From assembly GCA_030427255.1 (NCBI GenBank), contig JAUHWY010000018.1, forward strand, positions 2,359 to 66,358: a stretch of DNA of 64,000 nucleotides, read 5' to 3'. Positions 2,563-64,000 of this stretch are shown piece by piece. The stretch is from Bacteroidia bacterium. GTDB lineage: Bacteria > Bacteroidota > Bacteroidia > CAIKAF01. Position numbers and translations under genes: made by a program. The notes beneath the pieces were generated by a model, which was not told the DNA's origin, did no database searches, and saw only the letters and a list, made by a program, of their open reading frames with translations. The number at the start of each line of letters is the position of its first letter. Within the stretch, counting starts at the first letter, position 1.

Positions 2563-3601
2563 GGTAAACACAGTTATTTCAGGCCTAACATTAAAGCGAA
2601 TCGGCCAACTGCAACCCAATGCGCGGTTAATGTATACCCGTTTTTTATCGTCCACCTCAATATCGCCGCAGCTGTATTTTTTATTTTTTACCGGCAATAT
2701 AGGTGCTTCTAAGAAGGGCGCTTTGCATTGCCCCCCGTGGGTGTGCCCGGCCAACACATATCCTCTGTACGCACCCCAACCCGGCAAATCGCAGGCATCC
2801 GGGTTGTGGCAAAGCACCACTCCCGGGCCATCAAAATCGTAGCGGCTAAAAGTTTTTTGAATGTCCCATTGCTTGGCCCACAAGTCATCTGCACCGGCAA
2901 TTTGTAAGCCATGAACCTCCACTTGCTCGTTGCGGAGCATCTGCACTCCTTGGTTTTCCAGGATATTTTTGATGTGCTGTGCAACAGACCCCTGCGCCCA
3001 ATTTTTACCATAATCGTGGTTTCCAAGGATGCCTAGGGTAGCCATAGAACCGAAAAGTCCATGGCGCATCACCTCTTGCAATTGGCTGAATTGTTCCTGG
3101 TTTTCATAACTGACAAAATCACCGGTATATTCTGAGGCCGTTGACGCGTTGTGTTTTCAAGGCGAATTAAGGCACGGTCAAATTGAAAGTCCGCAGTTTA
3201 CTGATTGTAAATGAGGAACTTGAGATTTGGCCGTAACGCAAAGTCGCCGCCAGAATAGCAACGCGTCAACGGTCTCATACTACTAGTTCCGGTGCATAAG
3301 CCCTAGCCTTTTGCATGGACTCCATCAAATAGGAGTAAGGAAAGCGGTTGCCCACGTGCATATCGCTGATTTGGATAAGGCGTTTACCTCCCAAGGCTTT
3401 GGGAAGACCATGAATGGGCAATGGGCGCTCTACAAATTCCAAACGGTAGGGCGCCACTTTCCATGCATAAATGCCCAGGCCCAAGCTCATGCCTCCGGCG
3501 GCCCACATGCTTTTTTTTAAGAAGGAACGTCGGTTCATGGCACATGAACGGAGGCTGGGGAGGAGTGGTATGCAAGAACTGTTAAGAATCCTTGAATACA
3601 T
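2548..3601 (-). pseudogene. Calcineurin-like metallophosphoesterase with Tat-type signal, interrupted by a 145-bp insertion element
   Basis: The N-terminal ORF 3275..3601 carries a Tat-type signal (RRSFLK) and ends ...ISDMHV...YAPELVV*. The C-terminal ORF 2548..3081 has GNHDYG and GHTHGGQ. The conserved D-L-V-V-x-T-G-D motif is split: ELVV ends at 3278 and TGDFVSY resumes at 3126. The in-frame sequence between them contains stops. Confidence 0.6.
3133..3277. mobile_element. MITE-like insertion, about 145 bp, with 15-16-bp terminal inverted repeats (GGCCGTTGACGCGTTG ... CAACGCGTCAACGGTC)
   Basis: Near-perfect terminal inverted repeats at 3136-3151 and 3260-3275. It lies exactly within the conserved phosphoesterase motif. 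A diverged partial copy sits at 47148-47222. Confidence 0.6.
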
Positions 3602-3742
3602 AAGTAAGAAATGACAGAAGCAAAGAGACTTACAGCGGTCTTTCGGAAATATTGAGCATATACACTGCTTGAAAGATTTATTGAAAGCTTGGTGCCTTTG
3701 CTCCGGGTAGATTCTCTAACTTGCTTCGCAAAGTTAAATCAC

Positions 3743-4990
3743 ATGCGCAACTTTATTTTCGCTATTCTTCTGGTTTGTATTGGCCTTAGCACCTCAGCTC
3801 AAGGGGTTTTGATTGGAGACACGGCCCAGCCGCCGCATCCTGATGCCCTGCTCGAACTGCGCGGTTCAAGAGCCCTTTTGATGCCTCGGCTCAACACCAC
3901 CCAACGAAACGCCCTGCAAAATCCGGTACCCGGCATGCAGATTTACCATATTGACGACCAATGCGTCGAAGTGTATTTTCCCAGTCAAGGCTGGAGCGAC
4001 GTGGCCTGCGACTGCCCCAATCCCCCCTCGGCCGGTTTTAGCTTTAGCCCCAGCAGCCCAAACCTGAATCAATCGGTGACTTTCACTCCCGCCTCCGGTG
4101 GACTTAATTACCAATGGACCTTTGCCTCAGGAACTCCGGCAAGTTCAAACGCATCAAGCCCTCAAGTGAGCTGGACTCAAGCCGGCAACTACAATGTGCA
4201 ATTGGTGGTTACCGACAACACCGGCTGCACCGACACCAGCAACCAAAGCGTAACTGTGAACGCCTGCAACCCACAATCCGGTAACCAGACCTTCAACTAT
4301 ACCGGCAGCATGCAAACCTTTACCGTACCTGCCTGCATTACCAATTTGCAGGTAACCTTGTATGGAGCGGAGGGCGGTCAGCGCAACAGCCAGCCCGGTG
4401 GCCAAGGCGGCATGGTGAGCGGCGATTTGGCCGTAAGCCCGGGGCAGTTGGTTTATGTATATGTGGGTGGCCGAGGTGCCAATCAGCAAACCGCCGGTTG
4501 GAACGGTGGCGGCATTGGCGATTTTCAAGCCGGTGGCGAAGCCGGCGGCGGCGGCGGTGCTTCTGACCTGCGGCTGAATGGAACCAACCTTTCCGACCGA
4601 GTAGCGGTGGCTGGCGGCGGTGGCGGTTCCGGTTGGAATCGCGCCGGAGGACAAGGCGGCGGATCTACCGGCGGCGCGGGCCAGGGTCCTTACCCCGGAC
4701 AGGGAGGAACCCAAAGCGCAGGCGGTGCCCAGGGAGTAGATTTGTGCAATAACCAAACTTCAGCCCCGGGCATATTGGGCCAAGGTGGCAATGGAGCCAG
4801 TGGCGGTTGTGGTTCCGGCGGCGGAGGCGGCGGTGGCGGTGGCTACTACGGCGGCGGCGGTGGGGGCACCAACAACCCGGACTTAGGCTCCGGCGGCGGT
4901 GGCGGCTCCAATTATACCGGTGGACTCACCAATGCCAGCGGCAGCAGTGGCGTGCGCAGCGGAGACGGACAGATTTTGATTTCTTGGTAA
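3743..4990 (+). CDS. Secreted PKD-domain protein with a long glycine-rich C-terminal region (paralog of 51531..52829)
   Basis: Signal peptide MRNFIFAILLVCIGLSTSAQG. Conserved N-terminal module (ALLELRGS..LMPRLNTTQRNAL..GMQIYHIDDQCVEVY). PKD-like segment (NYQWTFASGTP...VQLVVTDNTGCTD). The TFTVPAC...GAEGG block is followed by G-rich repeats including GGGGGGGGGYYGGGGGG. The C-terminus is GDGQILISW. The ORF listed from 3689 probably starts at the Met at 3743. Confidence 0.7.
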   Translation: MRNFIFAILLVCIGLSTSAQGVLIGDTAQPPHPDALLELRGSRALLMPRLNTTQRNALQNPVPGMQIYHIDDQCVEVYFPSQGWSDVACDCPNPPSAGFSFSPSSPNLNQSVTFTPASGGLNYQWTFASGTPASSNASSPQVSWTQAGNYNVQLVVTDNTGCTDTSNQSVTVNACNPQSGNQTFNYTGSMQTFTVPACITNLQVTLYGAEGGQRNSQPGGQGGMVSGDLAVSPGQLVYVYVGGRGANQQTAGWNGGGIGDFQAGGEAGGGGGASDLRLNGTNLSDRVAVAGGGGGSGWNRAGGQGGGSTGGAGQGPYPGQGGTQSAGGAQGVDLCNNQTSAPGILGQGGNGASGGCGSGGGGGGGGGYYGGGGGGTNNPDLGSGGGGGSNYTGGLTNASGSSGVRSGDGQILISW

Positions 4991-9992: not shown

Positions 9993-10022
9993 GTTAAAAT
10001 TCTATATTGCAATATTACGATA

Positions 10023-10040
10023 AATAAATGAATTCATTTA
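10023..10040. promoter_or_regulatory. Perfect 18-bp palindrome ATAAATGAATTCATTTAT upstream of arsR; putative ArsR operator
   Basis: Seen directly, about 30-50 bp upstream of the arsR start. ArsR/SmtB operators are inverted repeats of this size. Confidence 0.45.
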
Positions 10041-10099
10041 TAACATTGGGCGATTCTTTTTAAGAAATCTATGATAAGGTGGAAGGGCAATGGTGAATG

Positions 10100-10545
10100 A
10101 TGAATGATGAATGATAAATGATAAATGATGAATGATAAATGATGAGGTAAAGACGGGATGCCTCCCGTCTCTCCATGATGATGTAAAGACGGGACATTTC
10201 CCGTCTCCGAATGATGAGGTAAAGACGGGATATCTCCCGTCTCCGAATGATGATGTAAAGACGGGATGCCTCCCGTCTCTCAATGATAAGGTAAAGACGA
10301 GATATCTCCCGTCTCTCCATGATGAGGTAAAGACGGGACATTTCCCGTCTCCGAATGATGATGTAAAGACGGGATGCCTCCCGTCTCTCAATGATAAATG
10401 ATGAGGTAAAGACGGGATGCCTCCCGTCTCTCCATGATAAGGTAAAGACGGGACATTTCCCGTCTCTGAATGATAAGGTAAAGACGGGATGCCTCCCGTC
10501 TCTCAATGATGAGGTAAAGACGGGATGCCTCCCGTCTCTCAATGG
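10100..10545. repeat. AATGATG/AATGATA heptamer array followed by 11 tandem 37-bp hairpin units (AATGATGAGGTAAAGACGGGA-loop-TCCCGTCTCTC)
   Basis: Units read off directly. Each unit has an 8-bp stem AGACGGGA/TCCCGTCT with a variable 4-nt loop (TGCC, CATT, TATC). There are no unique spacers between units. Confidence 0.85.
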
Positions 10546-10639
10546 GCCTTTATGTACACTTTTCGGCGGTTAAGGTAGACCTAGTTTAAGATAAAGAGGA
10601 TTAAACTCCTGCCCTTAGTTTTTTGACCTTTCCACAGAT

Positions 10640-10855
10640 GTGATTCAACCTAGAGTGGAGGGTTTTCAAAGAATGGCCCCCCGGCCAAATGGAGGGCCGT
10701 CCGATGCCGGAAAGCTGCCATGGCGCAGGCGAGGAAGCGGTGCCGATACTTCGGGAAAGCTACCGGAGCCCCGCCATGGCGCTTTCCGGCGAGGAAGACC
10801 GGAGTTAGGGCCGGATAGAATATATGGACATACTACGAAGCAGGGGCCCCAAGGC
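10640..10855. repeat. GC-rich palindromic core element
   Basis: It shares CAAAGAATGGCCCCCCGGCC with 38735. Inverted repeat CCGGAAAGCTGCCATGGCG ... CGCCATGGCGCTTTCCGG. Confidence 0.6.
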
Positions 10856-10889
10856 AAAAAAAAAGCAGCTCAAGGAGCTGCTTTTGTGG
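10856..10889 (-). terminator. Bidirectional rho-independent terminator (A9-GCAGCTC-AAGG-AGCTGC-TTTTG)
   Basis: Stem-loop flanked by an A9 run on one side and TTTT on the other. It lies immediately downstream of the minus-strand gene ending at 10903. Confidence 0.6.
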
Positions 10890-10902
10890 TGAGGTGGATT
10901 GC

Positions 10903-11733
10903 CTATTTCTTTTTCCATTCTTCAATGGAGTCGGTGTTGAGGCGCACGTAGTCCTCGTTTCCGGCTTCTTTGGCTTGGGCAATGGATTTTTCTGCCGTGG
11001 CGATGGCGTTTTTGTAGTCGCCCATTTTGGCTTGAATGAGTGCTTTTTGACGCAGCACCCAAAAACGCTCTTCCATTTCGAGGCTTTTGTTGATCCATTC
11101 GAGGGCCTGATTGAGGTCGCGGTTGGTGTCGTAGTAGTAGCGTGCGGCTTGGAAATAGGAGGTGGCCGAAACGTTGAGTGCTTCGCGGATGTTGGCGAGC
11201 ACCTTATCGTCAACCGAGGTTTCCACCTTGAAGGAGACCTTGCTGGTTTCCCAGCTGATTTCTACAAAGGCCGAGTTTCGGGTAATGTAGTTGAAATCAA
11301 TGGTGAAGGTTTCGGTAAAGGGTACGATTTCCGGTTTGGTTTTAATGCGCACCACGTCCTTAGCTTCGTCGTAGCGTGAGGTTCCTCCTTGATTCCAAAC
11401 GCTGTTTAAGATGAGTGTCCACTCTTGCGCGCCCGGAATGCTGAAGAGGCTGTATTTTCCGGGTGCCAGGTTTTTACCGCTAATGGTTACGGAGTCAGAA
11501 AACTCAATAACGGTAGCCATGTTGGCGCCGGTTCTCCACAGTTTACCGAAGGGCACCAAGTCACCAAAAATTTTGCGGCCGCGTGCACTGGGACGGGAAT
11601 AAGTGATGGTAGCGTCCATTAAGCCAATGGCTTGTTTGAGTTCGGCTTTTGGGCTGGGTTGGGGCATTTCGATTTGTGCTTGCAAAGGAGCAAGGGCTCC
11701 CAACAAGATTCCTACACAAAGGGCTTTATACAT
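10903..11733 (-). CDS. Secreted hypothetical protein (DUF2911-like beta domain plus C-terminal TPR-like helices)
   Basis: Signal peptide MYKALCVGILLGALAPLQAQ. Domain assignment is from memory and not verified. Confidence 0.4.
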   Translation of the reverse strand: MYKALCVGILLGALAPLQAQIEMPQPSPKAELKQAIGLMDATITYSRPSARGRKIFGDLVPFGKLWRTGANMATVIEFSDSVTISGKNLAPGKYSLFSIPGAQEWTLILNSVWNQGGTSRYDEAKDVVRIKTKPEIVPFTETFTIDFNYITRNSAFVEISWETSKVSFKVETSVDDKVLANIREALNVSATSYFQAARYYYDTNRDLNQALEWINKSLEMEERFWVLRQKALIQAKMGDYKNAIATAEKSIAQAKEAGNEDYVRLNTDSIEEWKKK

Positions 11734-11914
11734 GAGCTAAATGTTTGATTGATATTTTAATACAGCAAATAAACCAAAGATTAGAAATTTGGTTCGCGTC
11801 AAAGATGCAAAAATTAAGTGAGCAGGAGCAAGAAGGATGCTGAAGCCCAAGGAATGGGGAAAAGGATAAAGAAAAGGAAGCCTTAAGCTAAGATGGGGTT
11901 GTTGGGTATGGCCT

Positions 11915-12913
11915 TTACTTTGGGTCGTAGGCCCAGCGCACCAAAACGGCTCCCCAGGTGAAGCCACCCCCAAAGGCCGAGAGCACGAGGTAATCGCCTT
12001 TTTTGAGCTGTTTTTCGTAGTCCCAAAGGCAGAGCGGTAGCGTTCCGGCGGTGGTATTTCCGTATTTATGGATGTTGAGCATTACCTTTTCCGGTCCGAG
12101 CCCCATGCGTTGAGCCGTGGCGTCAATGATGCGTTTGTTGGCCTGGTGGGGAACCAACCAAGCGATGTCTTCGGCATTTAGTCCGTTGCGCTCCATAACT
12201 TGCGCAGAAACTTCAGCCATGTTGTTTACGGCAAACTTAAAAACAGCTTGTCCCTCTTGGTATACAAAGTGTTCGCGTGCATCAACGGTGGCATGGCTGG
12301 CAGGTCTGCGGCTTCCTCCTGCTTTTTGATGCAGGAATTGCGCTCCTGAACCATCGGATTTTAGGATGCTGTCCATGATGCCGTATGGTTCGTCTGAAGC
12401 TTCGAGCAAGACCGCACCGGCACCGTCTCCAAAAATGATGCAGGTAGCTCGATCGGTATAATCGATGATGGAGCTCATTTTATCGCCGCCAATGACCACC
12501 ACTTTTTTGTAGGTACCTGCTTCAATGAATTTAGCTCCTGTAACCAGGGCATAAATAAATCCGGAACAAGCGGCATTGATGTCGTAGCTAAATGCATTAA
12601 CGGCTCCTACTGCATCGGATACGATGTTTGCGGTTGCCGGGAATTGCATATCCGGAGTTACGGTAGCGCAAATGATTAAGTCTATTTCTGCGGGGTCAAG
12701 GCCTCTTTTTTTGAGGAGTCCATTTACGGCTTCGATAGCCATAACGGATGTTCCTTTGTCTTTGCCTTTAAGAATGCGTCTTTCGGCGATACCTGTACGG
12801 GACATAATCCATTCGTCGTTGGTATCTACCATTTGTTCCAGCTCTTTGTTGGTAAGCTTATCGGGGGGAACATAGCCCTCCACAGCGGTTATGGCTGCGT
12901 AGGTATCAGGCAT
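11915..12913 (-). CDS. fabH: 3-oxoacyl-ACP synthase III (KAS III)
   Basis: Typical FabH N-terminus (ITAVEGYVPPDKLTNKELEQMVDTNDEWIMSRTGI), active-site Cys region and C-terminal GGGFTWGA. The start is probably MPDTY at 12913. Confidence 0.85.
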   Translation of the reverse strand: MPDTYAAITAVEGYVPPDKLTNKELEQMVDTNDEWIMSRTGIAERRILKGKDKGTSVMAIEAVNGLLKKRGLDPAEIDLIICATVTPDMQFPATANIVSDAVGAVNAFSYDINAACSGFIYALVTGAKFIEAGTYKKVVVIGGDKMSSIIDYTDRATCIIFGDGAGAVLLEASDEPYGIMDSILKSDGSGAQFLHQKAGGSRRPASHATVDAREHFVYQEGQAVFKFAVNNMAEVSAQVMERNGLNAEDIAWLVPHQANKRIIDATAQRMGLGPEKVMLNIHKYGNTTAGTLPLCLWDYEKQLKKGDYLVLSAFGGGFTWGAVLVRWAYDPK

Positions 12914-13871
12914 GGGCCAGGGATTGTTTAATTTGTTCGGGGAGGCCATTCCGAGCAATATCCCATGAAAGACGAATCATGTGTTGGATGGCAGTAGGGC
13001 TAGAGATTCCATGACCAACCACTACGGGTCGGTTTACGCCTAAAATAGGCGATCCTCCATAAATCTCGTAATTTAATCGATCAAAGAAGGGGTGGCTGTT
13101 TAAACCGGCTTCTTTGGCAAATTCGTAGAACGTTTCGGCCAATTTCACCACTACATTACCGGTAAAACCGCTGGTAACTACAACATCGGCTTTGTCGGTA
13201 AACACATCACGGCCTTCGATATTACCGATAAAATTAATGTCACGGCATTCGGCCAGAAGTTTATGTCCGGCTATGGTAATGGCGTTTCCTTTTTCGGGTT
13301 CTTCGCCAATGGAGAGGAGGCCGATTTTGGGGTTGGAAATTTTGAGGATTTCTCTTGCGTACACAGAGCCCAGGACAGCCAGGTCGACTAAGTTCTCGGC
13401 TTTGGTATCGGCAATGGCTCCAACGTCGAGCATAACTCCATCCTTTCCACCATGAATGCGTGGAAGTGTGCTTAGCAAACAGGGCCTAAGATCGTCTCTA
13501 ACCACACCGGTTTTGAGGACAGCACCTACCAGCATGGCTCCGGTGTTACCGGCGGAGCAAAAAGCATCGATTTTACCTTCGCTAAGGTAATTTAGCCCAA
13601 CGGCGATGCTGGAATCTTGTTTTTCTTGGAGTGCACGAACGGGGCTGCTACCCATTAGAATGACTTCTTCGCAGGGGACTAGGCTAAGATTAGCGGCTAA
13701 TTCCTTGTGGTCATTTACGAAGGCATTCAGAAGGTTTTCCTGACCAAATAGGGTAATATGGAACTGTCCGGCCCAAGCATTGAGCGCGAGCTTGACCCCT
13801 TCCAAGGTAGCATCGGGGGCAAAATCCCCACCCATGATATCGATGCCGATGTTCATGCTTTGCGTATGCAA
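12906..13871 (-). CDS. plsX: Phosphate acyltransferase PlsX
   Basis: MNIGIDIMGGDFAP N-terminus, characteristic of PlsX. It sits between rpmF and fabH. Confidence 0.85.
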   Translation of the reverse strand: MHTQSMNIGIDIMGGDFAPDATLEGVKLALNAWAGQFHITLFGQENLLNAFVNDHKELAANLSLVPCEEVILMGSSPVRALQEKQDSSIAVGLNYLSEGKIDAFCSAGNTGAMLVGAVLKTGVVRDDLRPCLLSTLPRIHGGKDGVMLDVGAIADTKAENLVDLAVLGSVYAREILKISNPKIGLLSIGEEPEKGNAITIAGHKLLAECRDINFIGNIEGRDVFTDKADVVVTSGFTGNVVVKLAETFYEFAKEAGLNSHPFFDRLNYEIYGGSPILGVNRPVVVGHGISSPTAIQHMIRLSWDIARNGLPEQIKQSLAHA

Positions 13872-13896
13872 AAGAAAATCCGTGAGGATTTTCCGG

Positions 13897-14088
13897 TTAT
13901 TCTGCTGAGGTGGCTTCTACCACCAATTTCCCTTTGTAATAGAGATTGCCATCTACCATGTAAGCACGGTGACGGCGGTGCACGGTACCGGTGTTTGCGC
14001 AAGTAGAGAGGGTAGGCAAAGAAGCCTTGTAATGCGTACGGCGCTTATCGCGGCGTGTTTTCGAGATTTTTCGTTTAGGATGTGCCAT
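13897..14088 (-). CDS. rpmF: 50S ribosomal protein L32
   Basis: [18 protein letters not shown]-terminus. 63 aa. Confidence 0.85.
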
Positions 14089-14093
14089 AATTT

Positions 14094-14639
14094 CTACGAG
14101 TTATGCTTCAATTTTTTAAGAGCGTCCCAACGGGGGTCGTTTTCAGGTTCTTTTTCTTCGGTTTTGGGCTGGTATTTAGCAATACGTTGGAGCATTTCCG
14201 GGTCGCACTGTTTTTCTCCACTCAAATCCTGACTGCATCTACGAGTCCAAGGGAGCGTTACTTGCATTAGGTCGTTGAGGTAAGGGGCGAGATCAAAAGC
14301 AATTTCATTGGGACCTAAGACCAAAAGATCTTCGTCTTCTGAAGGGTTTGCTTCGGTATCTCCATCGAGCCGCACCACCAAATGTTTATTTCCTTGTAGG
14401 CCTTGGTTGTAGGACTGCAAGCATCGGTCGCAAGACATAGACACCTTTCCCTCAAACTTGATGTGGAACACCAGCATCGAGTCGTCTTTTTGCATGTCCA
14501 CCATAGTTTCAATGTGGCTATGCTCAAAGTCTTCTCGTGTAAAACCATCAAAGAACGCGTCATCCAACACAAAATCATAGTGATGGAGCCCATCTTTCAG
14601 CCCAGTAAACTCAATGTTGTATGGATTGTATGCTTTCAA
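14094..14639 (-). CDS. yceD: YceD/DUF177 family protein (large-subunit rRNA accumulation protein)
   Basis: SCDRCLQ cysteine motif. It lies immediately upstream of rpmF-plsX-fabH, the conserved arrangement. Confidence 0.7.
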
Positions 14640-14714
14640 GGTGCTGAAAATCGGAGGGCAAAGATAAGTTATGGCGGTTAATTCAACAAATCAAAGTTTG
14701 GGTATACCAAGTGC

Positions 14715-15812
14715 TTAATCATCGCGTTCCCGATCTCTTCGTTTTGAGATTTTGAGTGGGTTAGCCGTAATTTCTACATGCATAGCTCTGCATTTGCGGA
14801 TGTCTAGGGCCTGATAAATGGCCTGCATAAAGGAAGCCGGGTTTGCCTTTCCCGTACCTGCCAAATCAAACGCAGGGCCATGGTCGGGGCTGACCCGAAC
14901 AATGGGTAAACCGGCGGTGAAATTAACGCCTTCAAATCCGGTAATGCTTTTAAACCCGGTGAGTCCTTGGTCATGATACATGGCCAATACACCATCAAAA
15001 TTTCGGTAGTTCCCCGAACCAAAAAATCCGTCGGCAGGGAAAGGGCCTGCTACAAGTAGGTTGTTTTGGCTCCTAAGTTCTTGAAGGGTTGGCAAAATTA
15101 CTTCTTGCTCTTGGTTTCCAAAGCGCCCTTGATCGCTTGCGTGTGGATTTAGGGCCAAAACAGCGATTTTAGGCTTGGTAATGGCAAAGTCTTGAATTAA
15201 GGTTTGGTTAAACCTTAGTATGTGGTCTTTAAGAAGCTTAGGACTAATGGCTTTAGGCACATCTTCCAAGGGCATATGGCCTGTAAGTAAGGCTACCCTT
15301 AAACTCTCGTGGCACATAATCATTTGTGCTTTGCCCGAGGCCTTGTGTTCTAAATATTCGGTGTGTCCCGGAAAGTTCATTCCGGCTTCTACCATAAACG
15401 ATTTGTCCAATGGGGCCGTAATCAAGACATCGGCTTTGCCATTCAATACAGCTTCGGTGGCGGCTTCCAAAGAGGCAAATGCGGCCTGTGCCCCTTCCGG
15501 CGTCCGTTCTCCGGGAGTTGCCAACAAATTGGGCATGTGCTCCTGGATTAGGTTTAATTTTCCTTCCTGGGCCTCTTCTATGGATTTTATTTGATGAAAA
15601 GAAAAGGCATCGAGCTGAAGCTTTTTCTTGTAAAAAGCCATGACTTTTCCACTGGCAAACACCACCGGGGTGCACATAGACAACATGCCCGGGGTTGCAA
15701 AGCACTGCCAAATAATCTCAGGCCCTACACCATTAATGTCACCAACAGAAATTGCAATTAGGGGCTTTTCTGTTGCCTCCGGATAGGTGATTTTGGGAAT
15801 CGGTTTATTCAT
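14715..15812 (-). CDS. pdxA: 4-hydroxythreonine-4-phosphate dehydrogenase
   Basis: PdxA family motifs: ISVGDINGVGPEI, HGPAFDLAG, NPHA. Confidence 0.8.
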   Translation of the reverse strand: MNKPIPKITYPEATEKPLIAISVGDINGVGPEIIWQCFATPGMLSMCTPVVFASGKVMAFYKKKLQLDAFSFHQIKSIEEAQEGKLNLIQEHMPNLLATPGERTPEGAQAAFASLEAATEAVLNGKADVLITAPLDKSFMVEAGMNFPGHTEYLEHKASGKAQMIMCHESLRVALLTGHMPLEDVPKAISPKLLKDHILRFNQTLIQDFAITKPKIAVLALNPHASDQGRFGNQEQEVILPTLQELRSQNNLLVAGPFPADGFFGSGNYRNFDGVLAMYHDQGLTGFKSITGFEGVNFTAGLPIVRVSPDHGPAFDLAGTGKANPASFMQAIYQALDIRKCRAMHVEITANPLKISKRRDRERDD

Positions 15813-33514: not shown

Positions 33515-34327
33515 TTGGGCTTCAGCCGCTGTTTTTACTACCTTTGCCCGAAACACATCGAGGTGAGATTTCCGTATATATTTTTAGGAGGCTTGGCCAT
33601 GTTGCTTTTCGCTTGCAAAGCCATGAACCCAAGTATTATGCTTAGAACTCCTAAGGATTTTCAATACGATGCCTTTCCACAACAACCCGATTCCTCTTAC
33701 CGAATTGCCCCCAACGACAGACTATCCATGCAAATTCTTGGAGATGGTGGAGAACTCTACCTCAACCTAAGACGCGGCGGGCAAACCATGAATTTTAATC
33801 AGCTTGAGGTTTTGGTAGAATACGACGGTATGGCCAAACTTCCGGTACTTGGTCGCATTCCACTGGAAGGGCTCACCAAACGCGAAGCCGAAATCTATGT
33901 TGAAGACCTGTTTGAACAAACAGAAATCAACCGACCCTACGTTACCATTAATGTAACGAACCGACAAGTAATTGTTTTTCCCGGAACGGGAAGCAATGCA
34001 CAGGTTGTGCCCTTTGCACGCGAAAATATGAACCTCTTTGAGGCATTGGCTCAAGTTGGAGGAATCAATACCTTGGGCCGTGCCGACAAAATAAAACTAA
34101 TTCGAGGGGATTTTAAAAATCCACAAGTTTATCTTATTGACCTTTCCACTATTGACGGCATGAAACACGCCGACCTGTCCTTGCAAGCCAACGATGTAAT
34201 TTATGTGGAGCCTAGAAGACGACCCGTAGAACTCTTCCTTCAAAGCATTCAACCTTATTTGGCAACACTTACCGCTCTCATGAGCGTAGCAACTACCATT
34301 ATTGTAGTTCAAACGCTAAGCAATTGA
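33515..34327 (+). CDS. wza: Polysaccharide export protein (Wza-like, Poly_export plus SLBB domain)
   Basis: YRIAPNDRLSMQILG export motif. SLBB-like VFPGTGSN...VGGI. Confidence 0.7.
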   Translation: MGFSRCFYYLCPKHIEVRFPYIFLGGLAMLLFACKAMNPSIMLRTPKDFQYDAFPQQPDSSYRIAPNDRLSMQILGDGGELYLNLRRGGQTMNFNQLEVLVEYDGMAKLPVLGRIPLEGLTKREAEIYVEDLFEQTEINRPYVTINVTNRQVIVFPGTGSNAQVVPFARENMNLFEALAQVGGINTLGRADKIKLIRGDFKNPQVYLIDLSTIDGMKHADLSLQANDVIYVEPRRRPVELFLQSIQPYLATLTALMSVATTIIVVQTLSN

Positions 34328-38529: not shown

Positions 38530-38890
38530 TGTTTTTTTTGGGCGCCTTTTGGGGCCCTCGCTGCAAGTCCTCGGCTTGGGCGCACGGAGCGCTAAGGCTT
38601 GCGGGGGCTCCGCAAAGCTCCGCCTCCACAGCCCAAGCGCTCCGGCGCCCAAGCCTCCGGGCTTTCCGCATCGGTCCCCGGCGCAGAATCTCTATACTTT
38701 GGTAGACCATCTAAACCTTAGGGTTTAGTACATTCCAAAGAATGGCCCCCCGGCCCGGGTGGACGCCCACGCTGCGGCAGGCCTTAGGTTCGGCCCGGCC
38801 TTACTAGTGGAGCTTTGCGGAACTCAGTAAGGCCGGATTGCCGACCTTAGGCCTGCCGCAGTGAGGCTGGAACCAGGGGCCGATAGATGC
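38527..38890. repeat. Two tandem GC-rich palindromic core elements
   Basis: T8-GGGCGCC start. Inverted repeat GGCTTGGGCGCACGGAGCGCT ... AGCGCTCCGGCGCCCAAGCC. Second module begins CAAAGAATGGCCCCCCGGCC, as at 10667. GTGGAGCTTTGCGGAAC is shared with 52830 and 58290. Confidence 0.6.
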
Positions 38891-51074: not shown

Positions 51075-51480
51075 GAATGATTAATGATTAATGATGAGTG
51101 ATGCAGTAAAGACGCAACATCTTGCGTCTCATGCGTCTCATGCGTCTCAAGCGTCTCATGCCTCCCCTGCGTCTCAAACCGCAGTAAAGACGCAACATCT
51201 TGCGCCTCATTTTTTTGGCCGCCTTATCCTGCTGTCTGCGGTAGTGCCCCGTCTCCGGCCCACGGTCTGCGGCCGCTCCGGGGTCTTCGTTCCTCAGCCT
51301 CCTCGCTTGGCCGCATACCGGGGCCGGAGCCGCGTCAGCTACCTGCTTCCATCAGGGGCGGAGGATTACTAAAACTTTAAGAGAGGGGTGAGGTAAAGAC
51401 GCAATATCTTGCGTCTCAAACCGCAGAAAAGACGCAGTATCTTGCATCTCAAAAGTCTCAACTTGTTTTCAACACCCCAC
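51075..51480. repeat. Composite repeat: heptamer array, GGTAAAGACGCAA-loop-TTGCGTCTCA hairpin units, GC-rich palindromic core, then more hairpin units
   Basis: Read off directly. TGCGTCTCA nonamer repeats. The core has inverted repeat CTCCGGCCCACGGTCTGCGGCC ... GGCCGCATACCGGGGCCGGAG. Confidence 0.8.
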
Positions 51481-51530
51481 GCCCAACCGCTCTTTTGTCC
51501 TTACCTTTATCTTTCAACTTATTTTTCTTT

Positions 51531-52829
51531 ATGAAGTTCCTTTATTTCTTGCTTAGCCTTCTTTGGTCCGCCGGACTTTATGCGCAATCCGTTCGCATTG
51601 CTTCGTCTCCCGGACAGGCCGACCCCAGCGCCGGTTTGGATGTGGATTTTAACGACCGGGGCCTGCTTTTGCCCAGGTTAACCACCACCCAACGCAATGC
51701 CATCGCCAGTCCTGCCGATGGGCTTCAAATATTCAATACCACCAGCCAATGCATGGAAGTCTTTATTTCCAACAGTTGGTTTGCAGTGGCTTGCCCTTGC
51801 CAATATTTTCCCAACGCTCAGTTTTCGTTCTCTCCTTCCAATCCGGGAGCAGGAAATGCGGTGAGTTTTAGTCCCCAGCAATCAGGACTGCAATACCAAT
51901 GGTTGTTTGCCTCCGGTACACCGGCCTCTTCTTCCCAAGCCAACCCTTCCGTTACTTGGGCCAATGCAGGTACTTATTCGGTGGTGCTTCAGGTGACCGA
52001 CAACCAAGGATGCACCGCATCCGATACCCAAAATGTGGTGGTGAGCAGCTGCCCTCCCGGTTCTCAAACCTTTACCGCCAACGGCACGCTAGCCTCGGGT
52101 AGCATTCAAAGTTTTACGGTGCCGGCCTGTGCAACCTCAGTTACGGTAGAAGCCTGGGGCGCACAAGGCGGAAGTACCTCCAACACCAACGGTGGTTTGG
52201 GCGCCTACATCAAAGGCACTTTCTCGGTGTCGGGCGGTGAAGTACTGCGCGTCTTGGTGGGTCAACAAGGCGAAGCCGGCTCTTCTGGTCACGGCAACTG
52301 CGGTGGCGGCGGTGGCGGCTCTTTTGTGACCCGCAGCAACAACCAGCCCATGGTGGTGGCCGGTGGAGGCGGCGGTGCAGGAACCGCTTCCAACATCAGC
52401 ATTCGTACGCCCGATCCGGGACAAACTGGAAACAGCGGAACGGCAGGAAAAGGAAATGGAATGCCCGGCGGCACCGGAGGAAATGGTGCTCCGGGAGTTT
52501 GTTCAAGTTGTGGCGCAACCAATGGAGCCGGTTTGCAGAGCAACAGCCAAGCCTATGGCAGCTCTTATGGAACCTCAGCCATTGCTTTTACCAATGGTGG
52601 AGGAGGGGCTACCTCCAGTAGTGGATACGACGGTGGATTTGGGGGTGGCGGAGCAGGAGCTTTTGGTGCCGGCGGCGGCGGAGGTTATTCCGGTGGAGGT
52701 TCAGGAAACTATTCCGGTACCACGGACAACAGCGGCGGCGGCGGTGGCGGCTCTTTTAATGGAGGCACCAATCCGAGCAATCAAGCCGGAGTGAGGAGTG
52801 GGAATGGGCAAGTAATCATTAGTTGGTAA
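51531..52829 (+). CDS. Secreted PKD-domain/glycine-rich protein (paralog of 3743..4990)
   Basis: Signal peptide MKFLYFLLSLLWSAGLYAQ. Same N-terminal module (GLLLPRLTTTQRNAI...GLQIFNTTSQCMEVF). PKD-like segment. SFTVPACATSVTVEAWGAQGG. G-rich tail ending GNGQVIISW. Confidence 0.7.
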   Translation: MKFLYFLLSLLWSAGLYAQSVRIASSPGQADPSAGLDVDFNDRGLLLPRLTTTQRNAIASPADGLQIFNTTSQCMEVFISNSWFAVACPCQYFPNAQFSFSPSNPGAGNAVSFSPQQSGLQYQWLFASGTPASSSQANPSVTWANAGTYSVVLQVTDNQGCTASDTQNVVVSSCPPGSQTFTANGTLASGSIQSFTVPACATSVTVEAWGAQGGSTSNTNGGLGAYIKGTFSVSGGEVLRVLVGQQGEAGSSGHGNCGGGGGGSFVTRSNNQPMVVAGGGGGAGTASNISIRTPDPGQTGNSGTAGKGNGMPGGTGGNGAPGVCSSCGATNGAGLQSNSQAYGSSYGTSAIAFTNGGGGATSSSGYDGGFGGGGAGAFGAGGGGGYSGGGSGNYSGTTDNSGGGGGGSFNGGTNPSNQAGVRSGNGQVIISW

Positions 52830-53021: not shown

Positions 53022-55280
53022 ATGGAAAGCCACAAAATCGATGACTATTTGGCCGAAGAACAGGCCGAAATCAAAAAGCAATACCGCGCCCTGTTGCGGG
53101 CTGCCGGCAAAAATGTGGACAAGCCGGAGGACAAAAAGCGCATTCGTAGGGCCTTTGATTTGGCCGTAGATGCCCACAAAGAAATGCGCCGAAAGTCAGG
53201 AGAACCCTACATTTATCACCCCATTGCCGTGGCGCGCATTGTGTCGGAGGAGATGGGGCTGGGGGCCACCAGCATCATTTGTGCTTTGCTGCACGATACG
53301 GTAGAAGATACCGAAATTACCCTCGAAGATATTGAGCAGTTTTTTGGCCCAAAAGAGTCCAAAATCATCGATGGGCTCACCAAAATGGAAGGGGTATTTG
53401 ACCATACGCAATCCATTCAGGCCGAGAATTTTCGGAAGATTGTACTTACCCTCGCCGAGGACATTCGGGTAATTCTTATAAAAATCGCCGATCGCCTGCA
53501 CAACATGCGCACGCTCACCCACATGCGGCGCGATAAGCAACTTAAAATCGCCTCTGAAACGCTCTATTTGTATGCGCCTTTGGCCCATCGCCTTGGCCTG
53601 TACAACATCAAAACGGAGCTGGAAGACTTGAGCCTCTGCTATTTGGAACCCGAAGCTTTTGCCGATATTGAAGCCAAGCTCGAAAAAAGCAAAGAAGTAC
53701 GCGATCGCTTCGTTACCCATTTTGTGTATCCAATCCGCAAGGCCCTAAAGGCTCAAGAAATTGATTTTGAAATAAAAGGAAGAACCAAGTCCATTTATTC
53801 CATTTACAATAAGATTCGTAAGAAGGGTGTTCCTTTTGAGGAGATTTACGACATTTTTGCCATCCGAATCATTTTGGATGTGCCGCCCGAACGCGAAAAG
53901 GCTGAAATTTGGCGCACCTATTCTCTGGTCACCGATGTGTATCAACCCAAGCCGGACCGCCTGCGCGATTGGATTAGCTTTCCCCGGGCCAACGGCTACG
54001 AAAGTTTGCACGTTACGGTGATGAGTCCCACCGGCAAATGGGTGGAAGTACAAATCCGCAGCCGGCGCATGGACGACATGGCCGAAAAGGGCTATGCCGC
54101 CCATTGGAAGTACAAAGAGAATCAAGCCGAATCGGCCATTGACGAGTGGATTACCCGCGTGCGCGAAATGCTCGAAAGCCATCAGGAAGGGGAAGCCCTC
54201 GATTTTATGGACTCCTTTAAGTTGAACTTGTACAACGAGGAGATTTATACCTTTACACCTAAGGGAGAGCTGCGCACCATGCCTTCGGGTGCCACGGCCC
54301 TGGATTTTGCCTACGATATCCATTCCGAACTGGGCGACCACTGCCTTGGCGCCAAGGTCAACAACAAACTGGTGCCGCTAAGCTATGTGCTCAAAAGCGG
54401 CGACCAAATCGAAATTCTAAGCTCCAAAAAGCAAAAGCCCAAGGAAGATTGGCTCAGCTTTGTGGTAACCGGCAAAGCCCGCAGCCGCATCAAAGCTGCC
54501 CTCAAAGACGAAAAACGCCGCATTGCTGCCGAAGGAAAAGAAGTATTGGAACGCAAACTGCGCCGCCTTAAAATTCATTTTACCGAGGACGACCTGCCCA
54601 AAATGCTTAAATACTTCTCGGTGGACGATCCCTTGGAATTTTATTTTCAGGTGGGTACTGCGGCCATCAGCTCCCAACAAATTCGCGATTTTTATCGGGC
54701 AGAGAGCAACCGCAGCTGGTACCGCTACCTCACCACCAAGTTTAAGCGCAGCCAAATCAACGAAAAGGCCGAGGACAAAGACCAGCAGCTGCTCAAAAAG
54801 CTCAAGCAAGAAGAGAATCAACTACTGATTGGCGACAATTTAGAGAAGTTGGACTATAGCTTGGCCCCCTGTTGCAACCCCATTCCCGGCGACGAGGTAT
54901 TTGGCTTTGTTACCGTGGGCGACGGCATTAAAATCCACAAAACCAATTGCCCCAACGCCGTACAACTGCTCTCCAACTACGCCTATAGAGTGGTGAAAGC
55001 CAAGTGGACCAGTTCCGACGAACCTGCCTTTTTGGTGGGCATTCGCGTAACGGGCGTAGACGATGTGGGCATAGTGAATAAAATTACCCGCCTCATTTCC
55101 AATCAAATGAAGGTGAATATACGCTCTTTGAGTTTCGACTCAAATGATGGTATCTTTGAAGGCAGAATGACCCTGTTTGTGCAACATACCCTGCATTTGA
55201 ACGAACTCATCGGCAAATTGCGCGATTTGGAGGGGGTTATTGATGTGGAACGCATTACCCCTGAGCACCCAACGGCATGA
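53022..55280 (+). CDS. Bifunctional (p)ppGpp synthetase/hydrolase, RelA/SpoT family
   Basis: HD hydrolase motif (ALLHDTVEDT). Synthetase domain. TGS and C-terminal ACT regions. Confidence 0.9.
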   Translation: MESHKIDDYLAEEQAEIKKQYRALLRAAGKNVDKPEDKKRIRRAFDLAVDAHKEMRRKSGEPYIYHPIAVARIVSEEMGLGATSIICALLHDTVEDTEITLEDIEQFFGPKESKIIDGLTKMEGVFDHTQSIQAENFRKIVLTLAEDIRVILIKIADRLHNMRTLTHMRRDKQLKIASETLYLYAPLAHRLGLYNIKTELEDLSLCYLEPEAFADIEAKLEKSKEVRDRFVTHFVYPIRKALKAQEIDFEIKGRTKSIYSIYNKIRKKGVPFEEIYDIFAIRIILDVPPEREKAEIWRTYSLVTDVYQPKPDRLRDWISFPRANGYESLHVTVMSPTGKWVEVQIRSRRMDDMAEKGYAAHWKYKENQAESAIDEWITRVREMLESHQEGEALDFMDSFKLNLYNEEIYTFTPKGELRTMPSGATALDFAYDIHSELGDHCLGAKVNNKLVPLSYVLKSGDQIEILSSKKQKPKEDWLSFVVTGKARSRIKAALKDEKRRIAAEGKEVLERKLRRLKIHFTEDDLPKMLKYFSVDDPLEFYFQVGTAAISSQQIRDFYRAESNRSWYRYLTTKFKRSQINEKAEDKDQQLLKKLKQEENQLLIGDNLEKLDYSLAPCCNPIPGDEVFGFVTVGDGIKIHKTNCPNAVQLLSNYAYRVVKAKWTSSDEPAFLVGIRVTGVDDVGIVNKITRLISNQMKVNIRSLSFDSNDGIFEGRMTLFVQHTLHLNELIGKLRDLEGVIDVERITPEHPTA

Positions 55281-55741
55281 ATCAGAACCAGATGGAAGAA
55301 GTGCGCGACATTTTTAGTCGTTATTTGGAGGCCAATGGCCACCGCAAAACCCCGGAACGTTTTGCCATCCTCGAAGAAATTTACAGCCGCAACCACCATT
55401 TTGACGTTGAGGAGCTCTTTAAATCCATGAAAGAGCGCAACTATAGGGTGAGCCGGGCCACCGTGTACAATACCTTGGACCTTTTGCTCAATTGCCATTT
55501 GGTGCGCAAACACCAGTTCACCGGCAATTTGGCCCAATACGAAAAAAGCCACGGCTACAGCCAGCACGACCACCTCATTTGCAACCAATGCCACAAGGTT
55601 ACCGAGTTTTGTGATCCGCGCCTACACCACATCCAAACCGGCGTGGGCGATTTGCTCGGTTTTCAAATCAAACATCATTCCTTTATTCTGTACGGGGATT
55701 GCAACCAATCCGACTGCCCGGATCGACCGGATGCGCCGTAA
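55277..55741 (+). CDS. fur: Fur family transcriptional regulator
   Basis: Winged-helix N-terminus. HHDHLIC...C and C-terminal Cys/His metal-site motifs. Confidence 0.8.
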   Translation: MNQNQMEEVRDIFSRYLEANGHRKTPERFAILEEIYSRNHHFDVEELFKSMKERNYRVSRATVYNTLDLLLNCHLVRKHQFTGNLAQYEKSHGYSQHDHLICNQCHKVTEFCDPRLHHIQTGVGDLLGFQIKHHSFILYGDCNQSDCPDRPDAP

Positions 55742-55805
55742 CCACGGGATATGTTGCGTCTCTGCATGCCAATTATTCCGCGCTGAAGCCTTTGCGCCTC
55801 TAAGA

Positions 55806-55953
55806 CATCGGCATCCGCGCCTGCGCCGTCCAATCCAGCGACCCCTTGGCCCCGCTCCGATATTTCATTAGCCCCGCCATGGCAATCATGGCCGCATTGT
55901 CGGTGCAATAAGCCAATTTGGGGATGTGCAATTCCCAGCCTTTTTGGGTGCAG
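55806..55953. repeat. 147-bp direct repeat copy A: displaced duplicate of the tsaD 3-prime end (putative attL)
   Basis: 143/147 identity with 57112-57262. Read on the minus strand it encodes a TsaD-like C-terminus ending ...QARMPMS* with no upstream coding continuation. Confidence 0.75.
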
Positions 55954-57087: not shown

Positions 57088-58125
57088 TTAAGAAACCTTA
57101 TTGGGGTGTATCATCGGCATCCGCGCCTGCGCCGTCCAATCCAGCGACCCCTTAGCCCCGCTCCGATATTTCATTAGCCCCGCCATGGCAATCATAGCCG
57201 CATTGTCGGTGCAATAAGCCAATTTGGGGATGTGCAATTCCCAGCCTTTTTCGGTGCAAGCCTCCAGCAAAAAGCCCCGAAGCCCTTTATTGGCCGATAC
57301 CCCGCCTGCCAGCACCACCCGATGCACGCCCGTGGCCTCAACCGCCTCTTGCAGTCCCTTCCACAAAGTGGCAATAATCGCATCCTGATAATCGCGCGCC
57401 AAATCGGCCAAAGCTTGTCCCTCAGGAACCGCTTCCTGCTTTTGCAAGTACTGATACAAACTGGTTTTTAGTCCCGAAAAACTAAAATGCAGCGGTCCGG
57501 CCTTAGGCACAGGGAAGCGATGATTTCCGGGGCGACCTTGCGCGGCCAAGCGATCGATTTCCGGTCCTCCGGGATAGGGCAGCCCCAGCAATTTGGCGGC
57601 CTTGTCAAAGGCTTCGCCGGCGGCGTCGTCCAGGGTTTGACCGAGCAGTTCCAGACGGGTAGGGGAGTGCACCAGCACCAATTGCGTATGCCCCCCCGAC
57701 ACCGTAAGGCTCAGAAAAGGAAAATCGGGAGGATTTTTGCCGCTGATTTCCGCATCCTCAATAAAATGCGCCAGCACATGCGCTTCCATGTGGTGCACAT
57801 CAATAAGCGGAAGATTCAGCGCCAAGCTAAGTCCCTTGGCAAAGGAGCTGCCCACCAGCAGCGAACCCAGCAAACCGGGACCACGGGTGCAGGCAATCAG
57901 TTCCAAATCCTCCAGACGGCATTGCGCTTGCGCCAGGGCCTGATGCACCACCGGCAGAATGTGGCTCATATGGGCACGGGAGGCCAATTCGGGCACCACG
58001 CCACCGTATTGTCGGTGCACCTCCTGATTGGCGGTGACGTTGGCCAGAACGCGCGAGCCACTAAGCACGGCCGCGGAAGTATCGTCGCAGGAGCTTTCGA
58101 TGCCAAGAATAAGCGGTGGGCGCAT
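57088..58125 (-). CDS. tsaD: tRNA N6-adenosine threonylcarbamoyltransferase TsaD
   Basis: ILGIESSCDDTSAAV N-terminus. Conserved His pair and Kae1/TsaD fold length. The last roughly 150 bp are the copy B repeat, and the final 7 codons lie on the islet side. Confidence 0.85.
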   Translation of the reverse strand: MRPPLILGIESSCDDTSAAVLSGSRVLANVTANQEVHRQYGGVVPELASRAHMSHILPVVHQALAQAQCRLEDLELIACTRGPGLLGSLLVGSSFAKGLSLALNLPLIDVHHMEAHVLAHFIEDAEISGKNPPDFPFLSLTVSGGHTQLVLVHSPTRLELLGQTLDDAAGEAFDKAAKLLGLPYPGGPEIDRLAAQGRPGNHRFPVPKAGPLHFSFSGLKTSLYQYLQKQEAVPEGQALADLARDYQDAIIATLWKGLQEAVEATGVHRVVLAGGVSANKGLRGFLLEACTEKGWELHIPKLAYCTDNAAMIAMAGLMKYRSGAKGSLDWTAQARMPMIHPNKVS

Positions 58126-58146: not shown

Positions 58147-58640
58147 GGAATGATGAATGATGGATGATGAATGATGAGTGATGAATGATGAGGTAAAGAC
58201 GCAACATCTTGCGTCTCATGCGTCTCATGCGTCTCCACCCCCCAGTAACGACGCAACATCTTACGTCTTATGCGTCTCATGCGTCCCAAACGGCGCTTCT
58301 TGGGCCTTCCTTCCATAGGAAACCTAAGTTCCATATCCGCCCCTTTTCATCGGTCAGGCCCCGCCCCAAGCAAGCCGATCTAGGGCTCCGGTGGTTCCGC
58401 AAAGCTACACCTCCTCGCCCAAGTTCGGCTAGCCTGGGTCAGGGCGGCTTACAGCCCTGACCCTAGCGTCAGGGGCCCTCTGTGGGGGGCGGGAGGCGCA
58501 ACAAAAGGGCGTAGTGACGCATTGCCATGCGTCTACAGCAAGAGGGTAGCGACGCAAAATGTTGCATAATGGTGTTGTGGTTTATGGAGACGCAAAGTAT
58601 TGCGTCTTTACATCATTCATCATTAACCATTCATGATTAA
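58147..58640. mobile_element. MITE-like composite element with inverted termini (heptamer array plus GACGCAA hairpin units at both ends, in opposite orientation, flanking a GC-rich palindromic core)
   Basis: Left end 58147-58285 is GAATGATG array then GGTAAAGACGCAACATCTTGCGTCTCA. Right end 58587-58640 is GAGACGCAAAGTATTGCGTCTTTACATCATTCATCATT, the reverse complement of the same module. The core 58286-58560 contains GCTCCGGTGGTTCCGCAAAGCT, the inverted form of a block shared with other cores. Confidence 0.6.
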
Positions 58641-58687
58641 CCATTCCCTATACGTACTTTTGTTCCTTATTCTGCGTTGGGCACCTA

Positions 58688-63448: not shown

Positions 63449-63840
63449 GGTGAATGATGAATGGTGAATGATGAATGGTGAATGATGAATGATGAATGGT
63501 GAATGATGAATGGTGAATGATGAATGGTGAATGGTGAATGATGAATGGTGAATGATGAATGGTGAATGATGAATGGTGAATGATGAATGGTGAATGATGA
63601 ATGGTGAATGATGAATGATGAATGGTGAATGATGAATGATGAATGATGAATGATTAGGGGTGAGGTAAAGACGCAACATCTTGCGTCTCATTAGGGGTGA
63701 GGTAAAGACGGGGTGCCTCGCGTCTCATTAGGGGTGAGGTAATGACGGGATGCCTCGCGTCTCTTAATGATGAATGGTGTATGGTGAATGATGAATGATT
63801 AGGGATGAGGTAAATACGGGATGCCTCCCGTCTCTTAATG
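63449..63840. repeat. (GAATGATGAATGGT)n 14-bp array of about 15 copies, then mixed GACGCAA-type and GACGGGA-type hairpin units each preceded by TTAGGGGTGAGG
   Basis: Starts on the base after the tamB stop. Both hairpin families occur in one array. Confidence 0.85.
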
Positions 63841-64000
63841 ATGAATGGACTCTGCGTGCCCTTACACCGCGACAGCGGTTTCACGCAAAGTCGCCAAGCC
63901 GCAAAGGGGCGTTTGACGGCGCTATCTATTTCACAAATAGTTCCTTCCGCGCTAAAGCCTTTGCGCCTTCGCGTTTCTGCATGCCAATGCTTCCGCGCTA
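63841..64000. repeat. GC-rich core element, truncated by the window end
   Basis: Shares TTCCGCGCTAAAGCCTTTGCGCC and TCTGCATGCCAAT blocks with 55758-55800. Confidence 0.5.

Follow-up and report, generated by a model that had tools for sequence, protein, structure and literature searches.

A hairpin array between an ars gene row and DUF2911

We analysed a stretch of 64,000 nucleotides from the genome of a Bacteroidia bacterium (GenBank assembly GCA_030427255.1, contig JAUHWY010000018.1, positions 2,359 to 66,358 of the forward strand; hereafter the window), in which a tandem array of short hairpins fills intergenic DNA at positions 10138 to 10544. Genes were annotated with Pfam on 17 window open reading frames (ORFs), every neighbour of an array included, and only housekeeping or ars genes were found; precomputed Pfam matches for an identical Logan contig (L118, below) concur. 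To the left lies a minus-strand row that begins with arsR (HTH_5) and continues with a gene for a Methyltransf_31 protein similar to arsenite methyltransferases, followed by those for an LMWP-type phosphatase and an ACR3/SBF transporter. To the right are a GC-rich long hairpin (10660-10850), an intrinsic terminator on the minus strand (10861-10885), the DUF2911 gene, and then fabH, plsX and rpmF. The array sits between the DUF2911 terminator and the start of the ars row. A perfect palindrome upstream of arsR, 48 nt from the start of the array, is a plausible candidate for the ArsR operator. The features of this intergenic region are as follows.

10024-10041, no strand assigned: perfect 18-nt palindrome ATAAATGAATTCATTTAT, upstream of arsR and outside the repeat (sequence)
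10089-10145, plus strand: heptamer run of about 8 copies (AATGATG/AATGATA/AATGGTG) before the first hairpin (Tandem Repeats Finder, TRF; pattern search)
10138-10544, plus strand: hairpin array of 11 head-to-tail units of 36 bp, one of them 43 bp (TRF, sequence, folds and the covariance model R1 described below)
10660-10850, no strand assigned: GC-rich long imperfect hairpin adjoining the array, possibly a separate element (folds, blastn, sequence of the sister contig L067)

TRF resolved 10089-10145 as 8.1 copies of the 7-nt pattern AATGATG (90% matches), in agreement with an initial annotation, made from the sequence alone, that had placed an AATGATG/AATGATA heptamer array ahead of the hairpins. 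The stretch 10138-10544 was resolved as 11.1 copies of a 36-nt unit (82% matches), and a 108-nt unit gave a better score there (3.7 copies, 88% matches). Written out, the unit reads AATGATGA-GGTAAAGACGGGA-NNNN (loop)-TCCCGTCTC-YN. Each unit joins a heptamer-derived linker to a hairpin of the type found in repetitive extragenic palindromes (REPs), with a GTAA foot, an 8-bp stem (AGACGGGA/TCCCGTCT) and a 4-nt loop. The hairpins start at 10146, 10182, 10218, 10254, 10290, 10326, 10362, 10405, 10441, 10477 and 10513; the 10 nt between them are heptamer-repeat sequence, and the array ends in a truncated heptamer, AATG. The 11 head-to-tail units of the initial annotation are thus retained, with a period of 36 bp in place of the 37 bp given there, and the single 43-bp unit results from an extra AATGATA at 10390-10396. 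The perfect 8-bp helix that had been ascribed to every unit is present in 10 of the 11 stems; in unit 5 (10290) a G-to-A change (GACGAGA) produces an A.C mismatch. Variation had been placed in the loop and one or two flanking bases. The loops do vary (TGCC in six units, CATT in three and TATC in two), and so does the linker (C- or A-ATGAT-G/A-A; GG or TG; TC, CG or TG). When single units were folded as DNA, free energies ranged from -8.2 to -9.3 kcal/mol, with z-scores of -3.6 to -5.4 relative to shuffled sequences.

Dispersal of the hairpin across the window

With as many as 3 mismatches allowed, the window holds 23 copies of the motif GGTAAAGACG-N10-CGTCTC, where 0.17 would be expected. Beyond the array, copies lie at 51105, 51183, 51392, 51425, 55737, 58192, 58244, 58587 (minus strand), 63664, 63701, 63738 and 63809. 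The initial annotation had named an array without relatives elsewhere as the outcome that would speak against it; in fact the hairpin recurs at five further loci in the window, which favours the reading of a dispersed repeat. These loci are listed here.

51076-51212, plus strand: second locus; heptamers, hairpin AGTAAAGACGCAACATCTTGCGTCTC, (ATGCGTCTC)x6 and a second hairpin (TRF, pattern search, R1)
51392-51454, plus strand: two more hairpins on the far side of a GC-rich element (pattern search; R1, 37.7 and 14 bits)
55737-55762, plus strand: fifth further locus; degenerate hairpin CGTAACCACGGGATATGTTGCGTCTC with 3 mismatches (pattern search)
58148-58285, plus strand: third locus; heptamers and two hairpins, each followed by (ATGCGTCTC)n 3'-arm repeats (TRF, pattern search, R1)
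58583-58646, minus strand: the sole minus-strand copy; hairpin and heptamers inverted relative to 58148-58285 across a GC-rich core (best match of R1, 42.3 bits)
63449-63850, plus strand: fourth locus; (AATGGTGAATGATG)x14.7, three 37-bp hairpin units, heptamers and one hairpin (TRF, pattern search, R1)

Of these 23 copies, 22 lie wholly between listed ORFs (at least 100 amino acids) and 22 are on the plus strand, their orientation relative to the flanking genes being inconsistent between loci. The remaining, partly genic copy is the degenerate one at 55737-55762, which reaches 5 bases into the end of the Fur ORF (55277-55741), has no 5' heptamer run and was not recovered by R1 at E <= 1. At all other loci AATGRTG heptamers stand directly 5' of the hairpin foot, and several of the hairpins are followed by (ATGCGTCTC)n, a reiteration of their 3' arm. 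Since heptamers precede the hairpins and the 3' arm is reiterated at several loci, the repeated entity is composite: in this Bacteroidota lineage it consists of an AATGRTG run, a hairpin whose GTAA foot precedes an 8-bp stem closed by a 4-nt loop and, in some cases, 9-mer copies of the 3' arm. Further copies of the hairpin were found in metagenome contigs and in a sister metagenome-assembled genome (MAG), 'Flavobacteriales bacterium M30B58', to which this lineage is related.

Several local arrangements accompany these loci. The 9-mer tandems (ATGCGTCTC)n at 51123-51176, 58210-58235 and 58264-58285 repeat the 3' arm of the adjacent hairpin, and comparable 3'-arm duplications after hairpins occur in unrelated genomes (L002, L045, L100, L105, L108 and L112). 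At 63449-63654 the 14-mer AATGGTGAATGATG, made of alternating heptamers, is repeated 14.7 times with 96% matches; the run starts within one base of the tamB stop codon and leads into the three 37-bp units. Between tsaD and tamB, inverted heptamer-hairpin modules surround a GC-rich core (58148-58646), forming a composite of about 500 bp that resembles a REP doublet forming hairpins (REPIN) or a miniature inverted-repeat transposable element (MITE). GC skew is weakly positive over the window, which fits the plus strand as the lagging-strand template but is too weak to use.

Relationship to REPs of RAYT subclass 2.4

A collection of species-representative genomes was scanned once with GGTAAAGACGSRRNNNNYYSCGTCTC, a pattern derived from the window. 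The scan returned at least 117 loci in many phyla, and the matches listed include Nostoc and other cyanobacteria, many Bacteroidota, Acidobacteriota, Chloroflexota, Ignavibacteria, lineages of the candidate phyla radiation, Omnitrophota and others. Across these phyla the motif takes the form GTA[AG]-AGACG-stem-loop-stem-CGTCT. In 89 of 113 copies outside the window's lineage it continues with TAC, giving a 3' CTAC foot; therefore the opposite strand reads GTAG-AGACG..., and the whole forms a near-perfect 13-bp palindrome. All three inner pairs are Watson-Crick in 107 of the 113 cross-phylum copies, against 12.5% expected from the search pattern alone, and six different complementary inner stems occur among them. 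In the window's lineage the four loop-proximal pairs are GGGA/TCCC, GGAA/TTCC, GGAG/CTCC or GCAA/TTGC. Since the inner stems differ and yet remain complementary, the hairpin is kept intact by compensatory change. Across phyla, the co-occurrence of the hairpin with heptamer runs (7 observed, 3.3 expected, P ~0.05) is too weak to claim, because the Nostoc loci are full of heptamer runs anyway.

The GGTAAAGACG...CGTCTC hairpin is abundant in Nostoc genomes, where, in contrast to the regular arrays of the window, it sits in a conserved element of about 100 nt. At L001, L005-L010 and about 60 other loci this element reads TATACCAATTCAATTAATGATTGCAACACATCCTTG-hairpin-TACAAATGGTCTATTTGTCGCATTC and, with many copies per genome, appears MITE-like. 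Cyanobacterial small dispersed repeats (SDRs) are reportedly very small hairpins within tandem heptamer (STRR) runs, an arrangement that the heptamer-embedded hairpins of the window recall. Elsewhere, two loci of a MAG labelled Candidatus Competibacteraceae (L059 and L081) carry AATGATG heptamers and the GGGA-TGCC-TCCC hairpin, and L081 7698-7773 matches window positions 3165-3240 over a short length at 89% identity. These contigs may be misbinned and stem from a relative of the window's Bacteroidota lineage.

We then asked which genes accompany the hairpin elsewhere. All ORFs of about 109 fetched eight-kilobase loci were translated and clustered. Once generic families (response regulators, ABC ATPases, kinases) were set aside, a single recurrent neighbour emerged, an HUH/Y1 protein of 170-224 amino acids (trimmed) present at 7 loci in 7 taxa: two Prolixibacteraceae, a Peribacteria MAG, Mucilaginibacter, Ignavibacteriales, Neomarinimicrobiota and Maribacter. 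This protein matches the NCBIfam model NF047646, 'REP-associated tyrosine transposase' (RAYT), with E-values of 1e-11 to 1e-16, its best match in the PDB is 4er8 (TnpArep), and the motifs MP[ND]HxH, WQP and YIxxNP are invariant in the alignment. A profile search returned at least 8000 homologues, some of which are named 'REP element-mobilizing transposase RayT' in the source databases. Hairpins flank the RAYT gene in 7 of 7 loci, and in 6 of 7 they also lie in frame inside the RAYT ORF, where they encode peptides such as VETQNFASL; at the Maribacter locus (L112) an in-frame hairpin is inferred from the peptide GGTQNFASL. TnpA_REP subclass 2.4, which corresponds to group 4 of Bertels, is characterized by the motifs NH[IFV]H, WQ and YIxNNP and by REPs with a 'double foot' (5' GT[AG]G and 3' C[TC]AC), and REPs inserted within tnpA_REP without breaking the frame are a trait unique to it (Quentin et al. 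2018, PMC6006769). The subclass is spread over Cyanobacteria, Bacteroidetes and scattered phyla; about 5% of species have it, with about 1.5 copies in a genome (PMC6006769). In motifs, lengths and in-frame hairpins, the proteins encoded beside our hairpin agree with this description. Since the subclass is so sparse, 7 genes in about 109 loci of this size are far above chance.

As the RAYT loci had been retrieved with a pattern derived from the window, their association with the hairpin is partly conditioned on that pattern. To reduce this circularity, we built a covariance model (R1) from 14 hairpins of the RAYT loci, none of which matches the search pattern, and searched the window with filters off. 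R1 recovered all 11 array units on the plus strand (22.3-29.9 bits, E 2.5e-7 to 7.7e-5), aligning their GTAA to the GTAG foot, and scored the other window copies at up to 42.3 bits and down to E 2e-11. No unrelated site in the window fell below E = 0.1; the sole other site, at 33746, had E = 0.68. The window repeat thus resembles RAYT-flanking REPs in sequence and structure, and it shares with REPs in general a short (20-40 bp) stem-loop palindrome that is high-copy, dispersed and extragenic (6 loci in 64 kb).

With the REPs of subclass 2.4 (RAYT group 4; PMC6006769; Bertels et al. 2017, PMC5581495) the hairpin has in common the core AGACG-stem-loop-stem-CGTCT, a GTA[AG] foot directly 5' of the stem, a distribution over Bacteroidota and Cyanobacteria, and its occurrence, in other genomes, next to RAYT genes of this subclass and, in frame, within them. 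With the GTAG-tagged REP superfamily and bacterial interspersed mosaic elements (BIMEs; PMC3733652) it shares the small extragenic palindrome, tagged at one end by a tetranucleotide, the dispersal in intergenic DNA between unidirectional genes, and the clusters of tandem units that include flanking DNA.

Other results weigh against the assignment, and the conditioning of the RAYT association on our search pattern has to be counted among them. The RAYT matches to NF047646 stay under the equivalog's 80-bit cut-off, and Pfam gave no match to the RAYT-like proteins at E 1e-3. A tblastn search with RAYT queries, covering the window and 24 kb from the sister genome (L037, L067 and L090), found no RAYT gene. 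Unlike the REPs of subclass 2.4, the window copies lie in heptamer runs, stacked head to tail, and have a single foot, which reads GTAA (or TGTAA/AGTAA) and departs in its fourth base from the canonical GT[AG]G located 0-2 nt 5' of the stem; the 3' CTAC of the 'double foot' is present in 0 of 23, as against the 89 of 113 elsewhere. Applied strictly, the GT[AG]G rule would leave the window copies outside the REPs, and GTAA is likewise absent from the degenerate GTAG forms listed for the superfamily (PMC3733652). Finally, most families of that superfamily pair as inverted dimers, head-to-head or tail-to-tail, and a head-to-tail arrangement is otherwise rare (Di Nocera et al. 2013, PMC3733652), whereas 22 of the 23 window copies share one orientation and the arrays are purely head-to-tail. 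Regarding the foot, copies with GTAA are found inside and beside RAYT genes at three loci (L102, L089 and L031), so the GTAA variant is not foreign to the family.

We also looked for a RAYT belonging to the lineage itself. REP-derived peptides were sought in the best 120 of the at least 8000 homologues, and the lineage's own RAYT was not among these 120; only P0084, from an unrelated AT-rich Logan contig, carried such a peptide. P0084 contains GAGACGCAAGATGTTGCGTCTC in frame; its reverse complement is exactly GACGCAACATCTTGCGTC, the second subfamily of hairpins in the window. A metagenome scan with a lineage-specific pattern returned two short contigs, with no RAYT on either. In-frame hairpins inside RAYT genes were seen at L031, L032, L044, L056, L089, L102 (five copies) and L121 (P0084), and in P0084 the insertions lie at two different protein sites. 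At one locus (L068, 4074-4910) a hairpin lies in an upstream in-frame extension of an ABC-ATPase ORF and encodes the peptide DAINRVST.

Turnover of the array and its origin

The sister MAG allowed us to compare arrays between related genomes. One of its contigs (L067) is about 90% identical to window positions 10320-15725, and at the orthologous site it carries (AATGGTG)x8 followed by 8-9 units of 43 bp, each made of two heptamers and the same hairpin. This site also keeps the GC-rich element, its stem differing in sequence yet still complementary, and the DUF2911 gene; the left neighbour is a different ORF of 396 amino acids, and no ars operon is present. A second contig of the same MAG (L090), syntenic with the window's tamB region, has an array of 13 units of 36 bp that hardly differ from one another; their stem is GGAG/CTCC, 12 of these stems being identical. 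Homogenisation has thus given each array a variant of its own. In the window array, units three places apart are 93% identical and adjacent units 86%; units 1, 8 and 11 share one sequence, so do units 4 and 7, and every unit with a CATT loop has a C-ATGAT linker and a CG or TG tail. The offset-3 periodicity, the identical units and the linkage of loop to linker variants together form the pattern that block duplication, through slippage or unequal exchange, would leave. REP clusters in which the neighbouring DNA was repeated in tandem along with the REP have been described (Di Nocera et al. 2013, PMC3733652). A search for strain variants gave one Logan contig (L118, ERR3428543), which matches the window at 100% identity; it breaks off within the array and hence is silent on copy number.

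In the light of these results, the array is probably a REP cluster of the RAYT subclass 2.4 type that first lodged in a heptamer run and then grew through tandem duplication, with no specific link to the ars genes. The resemblance to RAYT-linked hairpins, the dispersal in the window, the compensatory stems, the turnover between sister species and the higher-order periodicity all argue for it. Most likely, a RAYT acting on single-stranded DNA would have embedded the hairpin in the heptamer run, and replication slippage or unequal recombination would then have copied the [heptamer + hairpin] unit over and over, in part as blocks of about three units. The array would occupy dispensable intergenic DNA, and any effect it has would be of the generic REP kind, such as protection of mRNA 3' ends, insulation of transcription or protein binding. 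Among the roles proposed in the initial annotation, that of a substrate for Y1 or RAYT-like transposases thereby gains support, since the hairpin belongs to a REP family that flanks and invades subclass 2.4 genes elsewhere.

A different use of the same enzymes would be site-specific insertion, in which a Y1/RAYT-type enzyme placed one 29-nt hairpin cassette after each heptamer (…ATGATGA^) of a pre-existing run. IS200/IS605 Y1 transposases insert 3' of a short specific target, and several features of the array would suit such a process: in the phase ATGATRA each cassette lies between complete heptamers, one 'empty' heptamer is left between units 7 and 8, the proportions of ATGATGA and ATGATAA are similar in the pure run and between cassettes, heptamers immediately precede the foot at all loci bar the degenerate one, and long empty heptamer runs occur (63449-63654 for example). 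We nevertheless consider this explanation unlikely, since the block structure and the linked variants are better accommodated by block duplication than by independent insertions; the offset-3 identity peak, the recurrence of whole units (1/8/11 and 4/7), the association of loop with linker variants and the homogenisation of arrays to locus-specific variants, as in the 12 identical stems of L090, all speak against it. More speculatively, and with a low probability in our estimate, the composite modules may be footprints of RAYT catalysis, with the heptamers as arrays of insertion targets and the head-to-tail 36-nt arrays or 9-mer runs as products either of successive rounds of cleavage and rejoining or of a tiny circle of single-stranded DNA copied in rolling-circle fashion. 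In that case the lineage would hold a natural record of REP copying and insertion, a step that is unresolved for RAYTs.

A role in cis, either as an insulator or 3'-end stabiliser for the DUF2911 mRNA, as a spacer for the ars promoter or as a small-RNA precursor, is suggested by the location of the array, with a terminator on one side and the next promoter of that strand on the other, by the stability of the hairpins and by the presence of an array at the orthologous site of the sister species. In addition, REPs of other bacteria have been proposed as RNA elements. Set against this are the absence of an ars operon beside the orthologous array and the lack of conservation, between species, of unit length, copy number and loops. 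Moreover, the way copies are oriented with respect to flanking genes differs from locus to locus, the hairpins lack a U-tract, and Rfam 15 at the gathering score gave no match in the whole window, a lax scan of 10000-10900 returning only spurious plant miRNA and snoRNA matches far below threshold. We judge such a role to be improbable. The initial annotation had placed the array just upstream of the ars operon promoter and operator; with a different left neighbour and no ars genes beside the sister array, that proximity is incidental, and a tie to the ars operon is rejected.

The regular spacing of the hairpins had also led to the description of a spacerless array resembling CRISPR. True CRISPR arrays likewise consist of direct repeats that are about 30 bp long, in part palindromic and set at regular intervals, and the 36-bp period leaves several frames open (ORFs of 157, 117, 89 and 60 amino acids), as a protein-coding repeat would. 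Unlike a CRISPR array, however, the window array has neither unique spacers, the whole stretch being a single 36-nt tandem repeat in TRF with heptamer-derived sequence between the hairpins, nor a leader or cas genes, and its unit is dispersed over five further loci. Neither a cas gene nor a transposase nor an HUH protein was found in the window by Pfam on the 17 ORFs and tblastn with RAYT queries. CRISPR is therefore rejected, as is a coding repeat, since the 43-bp period of the orthologous array leaves no conserved reading frame; a degenerate or novel CRISPR-like array would likewise be most improbable.

Thus a false lead, that of a CRISPR-like system or an ars regulatory device, is removed, and a striking repeat can, with the likelihood given above, be assigned to a known class, the REPs of the RAYT subclass 2.4 type. 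The arrangement is unusual for REPs, with pure head-to-tail, heptamer-embedded arrays in an uncultured Bacteroidota lineage and quick turnover between sister species. Repeats of this kind break short-read assemblies, as in L118, which ends within the array, and can be miscalled as CRISPRs or ORFs. Because the movement of REPs by RAYTs is still unresolved, a lineage with hairpins at a fixed position in a heptamer lattice could, speculatively, serve as a convenient test system.

Several other elements of the window were recorded. GC-rich long imperfect hairpins of 165-200 nt adjoin hairpin arrays at 10660-10850, 38733-38885, 51216-51376 and 58300-58510, and the same class is found in the sister MAG (L067 2940-3120 and L090 832-992); the copy at L090 832-992 is 96% identical to window 51216-51376, although at a different locus. 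Their ends are conserved (CAAAGAATGGCCCCCCGGCC ... GGGGCC), and their inner stems vary between copies and relative to the orthologue while remaining self-complementary. On either strand their folds come to about -92 kcal/mol (z about -5); Rfam gave no match to them. These hairpins could represent a second mobile palindromic element or a structured RNA. A direct repeat of 147 nt (98% identity) at 55806-55952 and 57112-57258 encloses about 1.2 kb of AT-rich DNA with a 319-aa ORF that has a weak RES-domain match; the second repeat copy overlaps the 3' end of tsaD, and the whole looks like an insertion that duplicated the gene end. Finally, 3689-4990 and 51495-52829 are paralogous ORFs of secreted type with PKD domains and glycine-rich regions encoded by GGC/GGT repeats; one of the two ORFs matches the ALK/LTK glycine-rich domain in Pfam.

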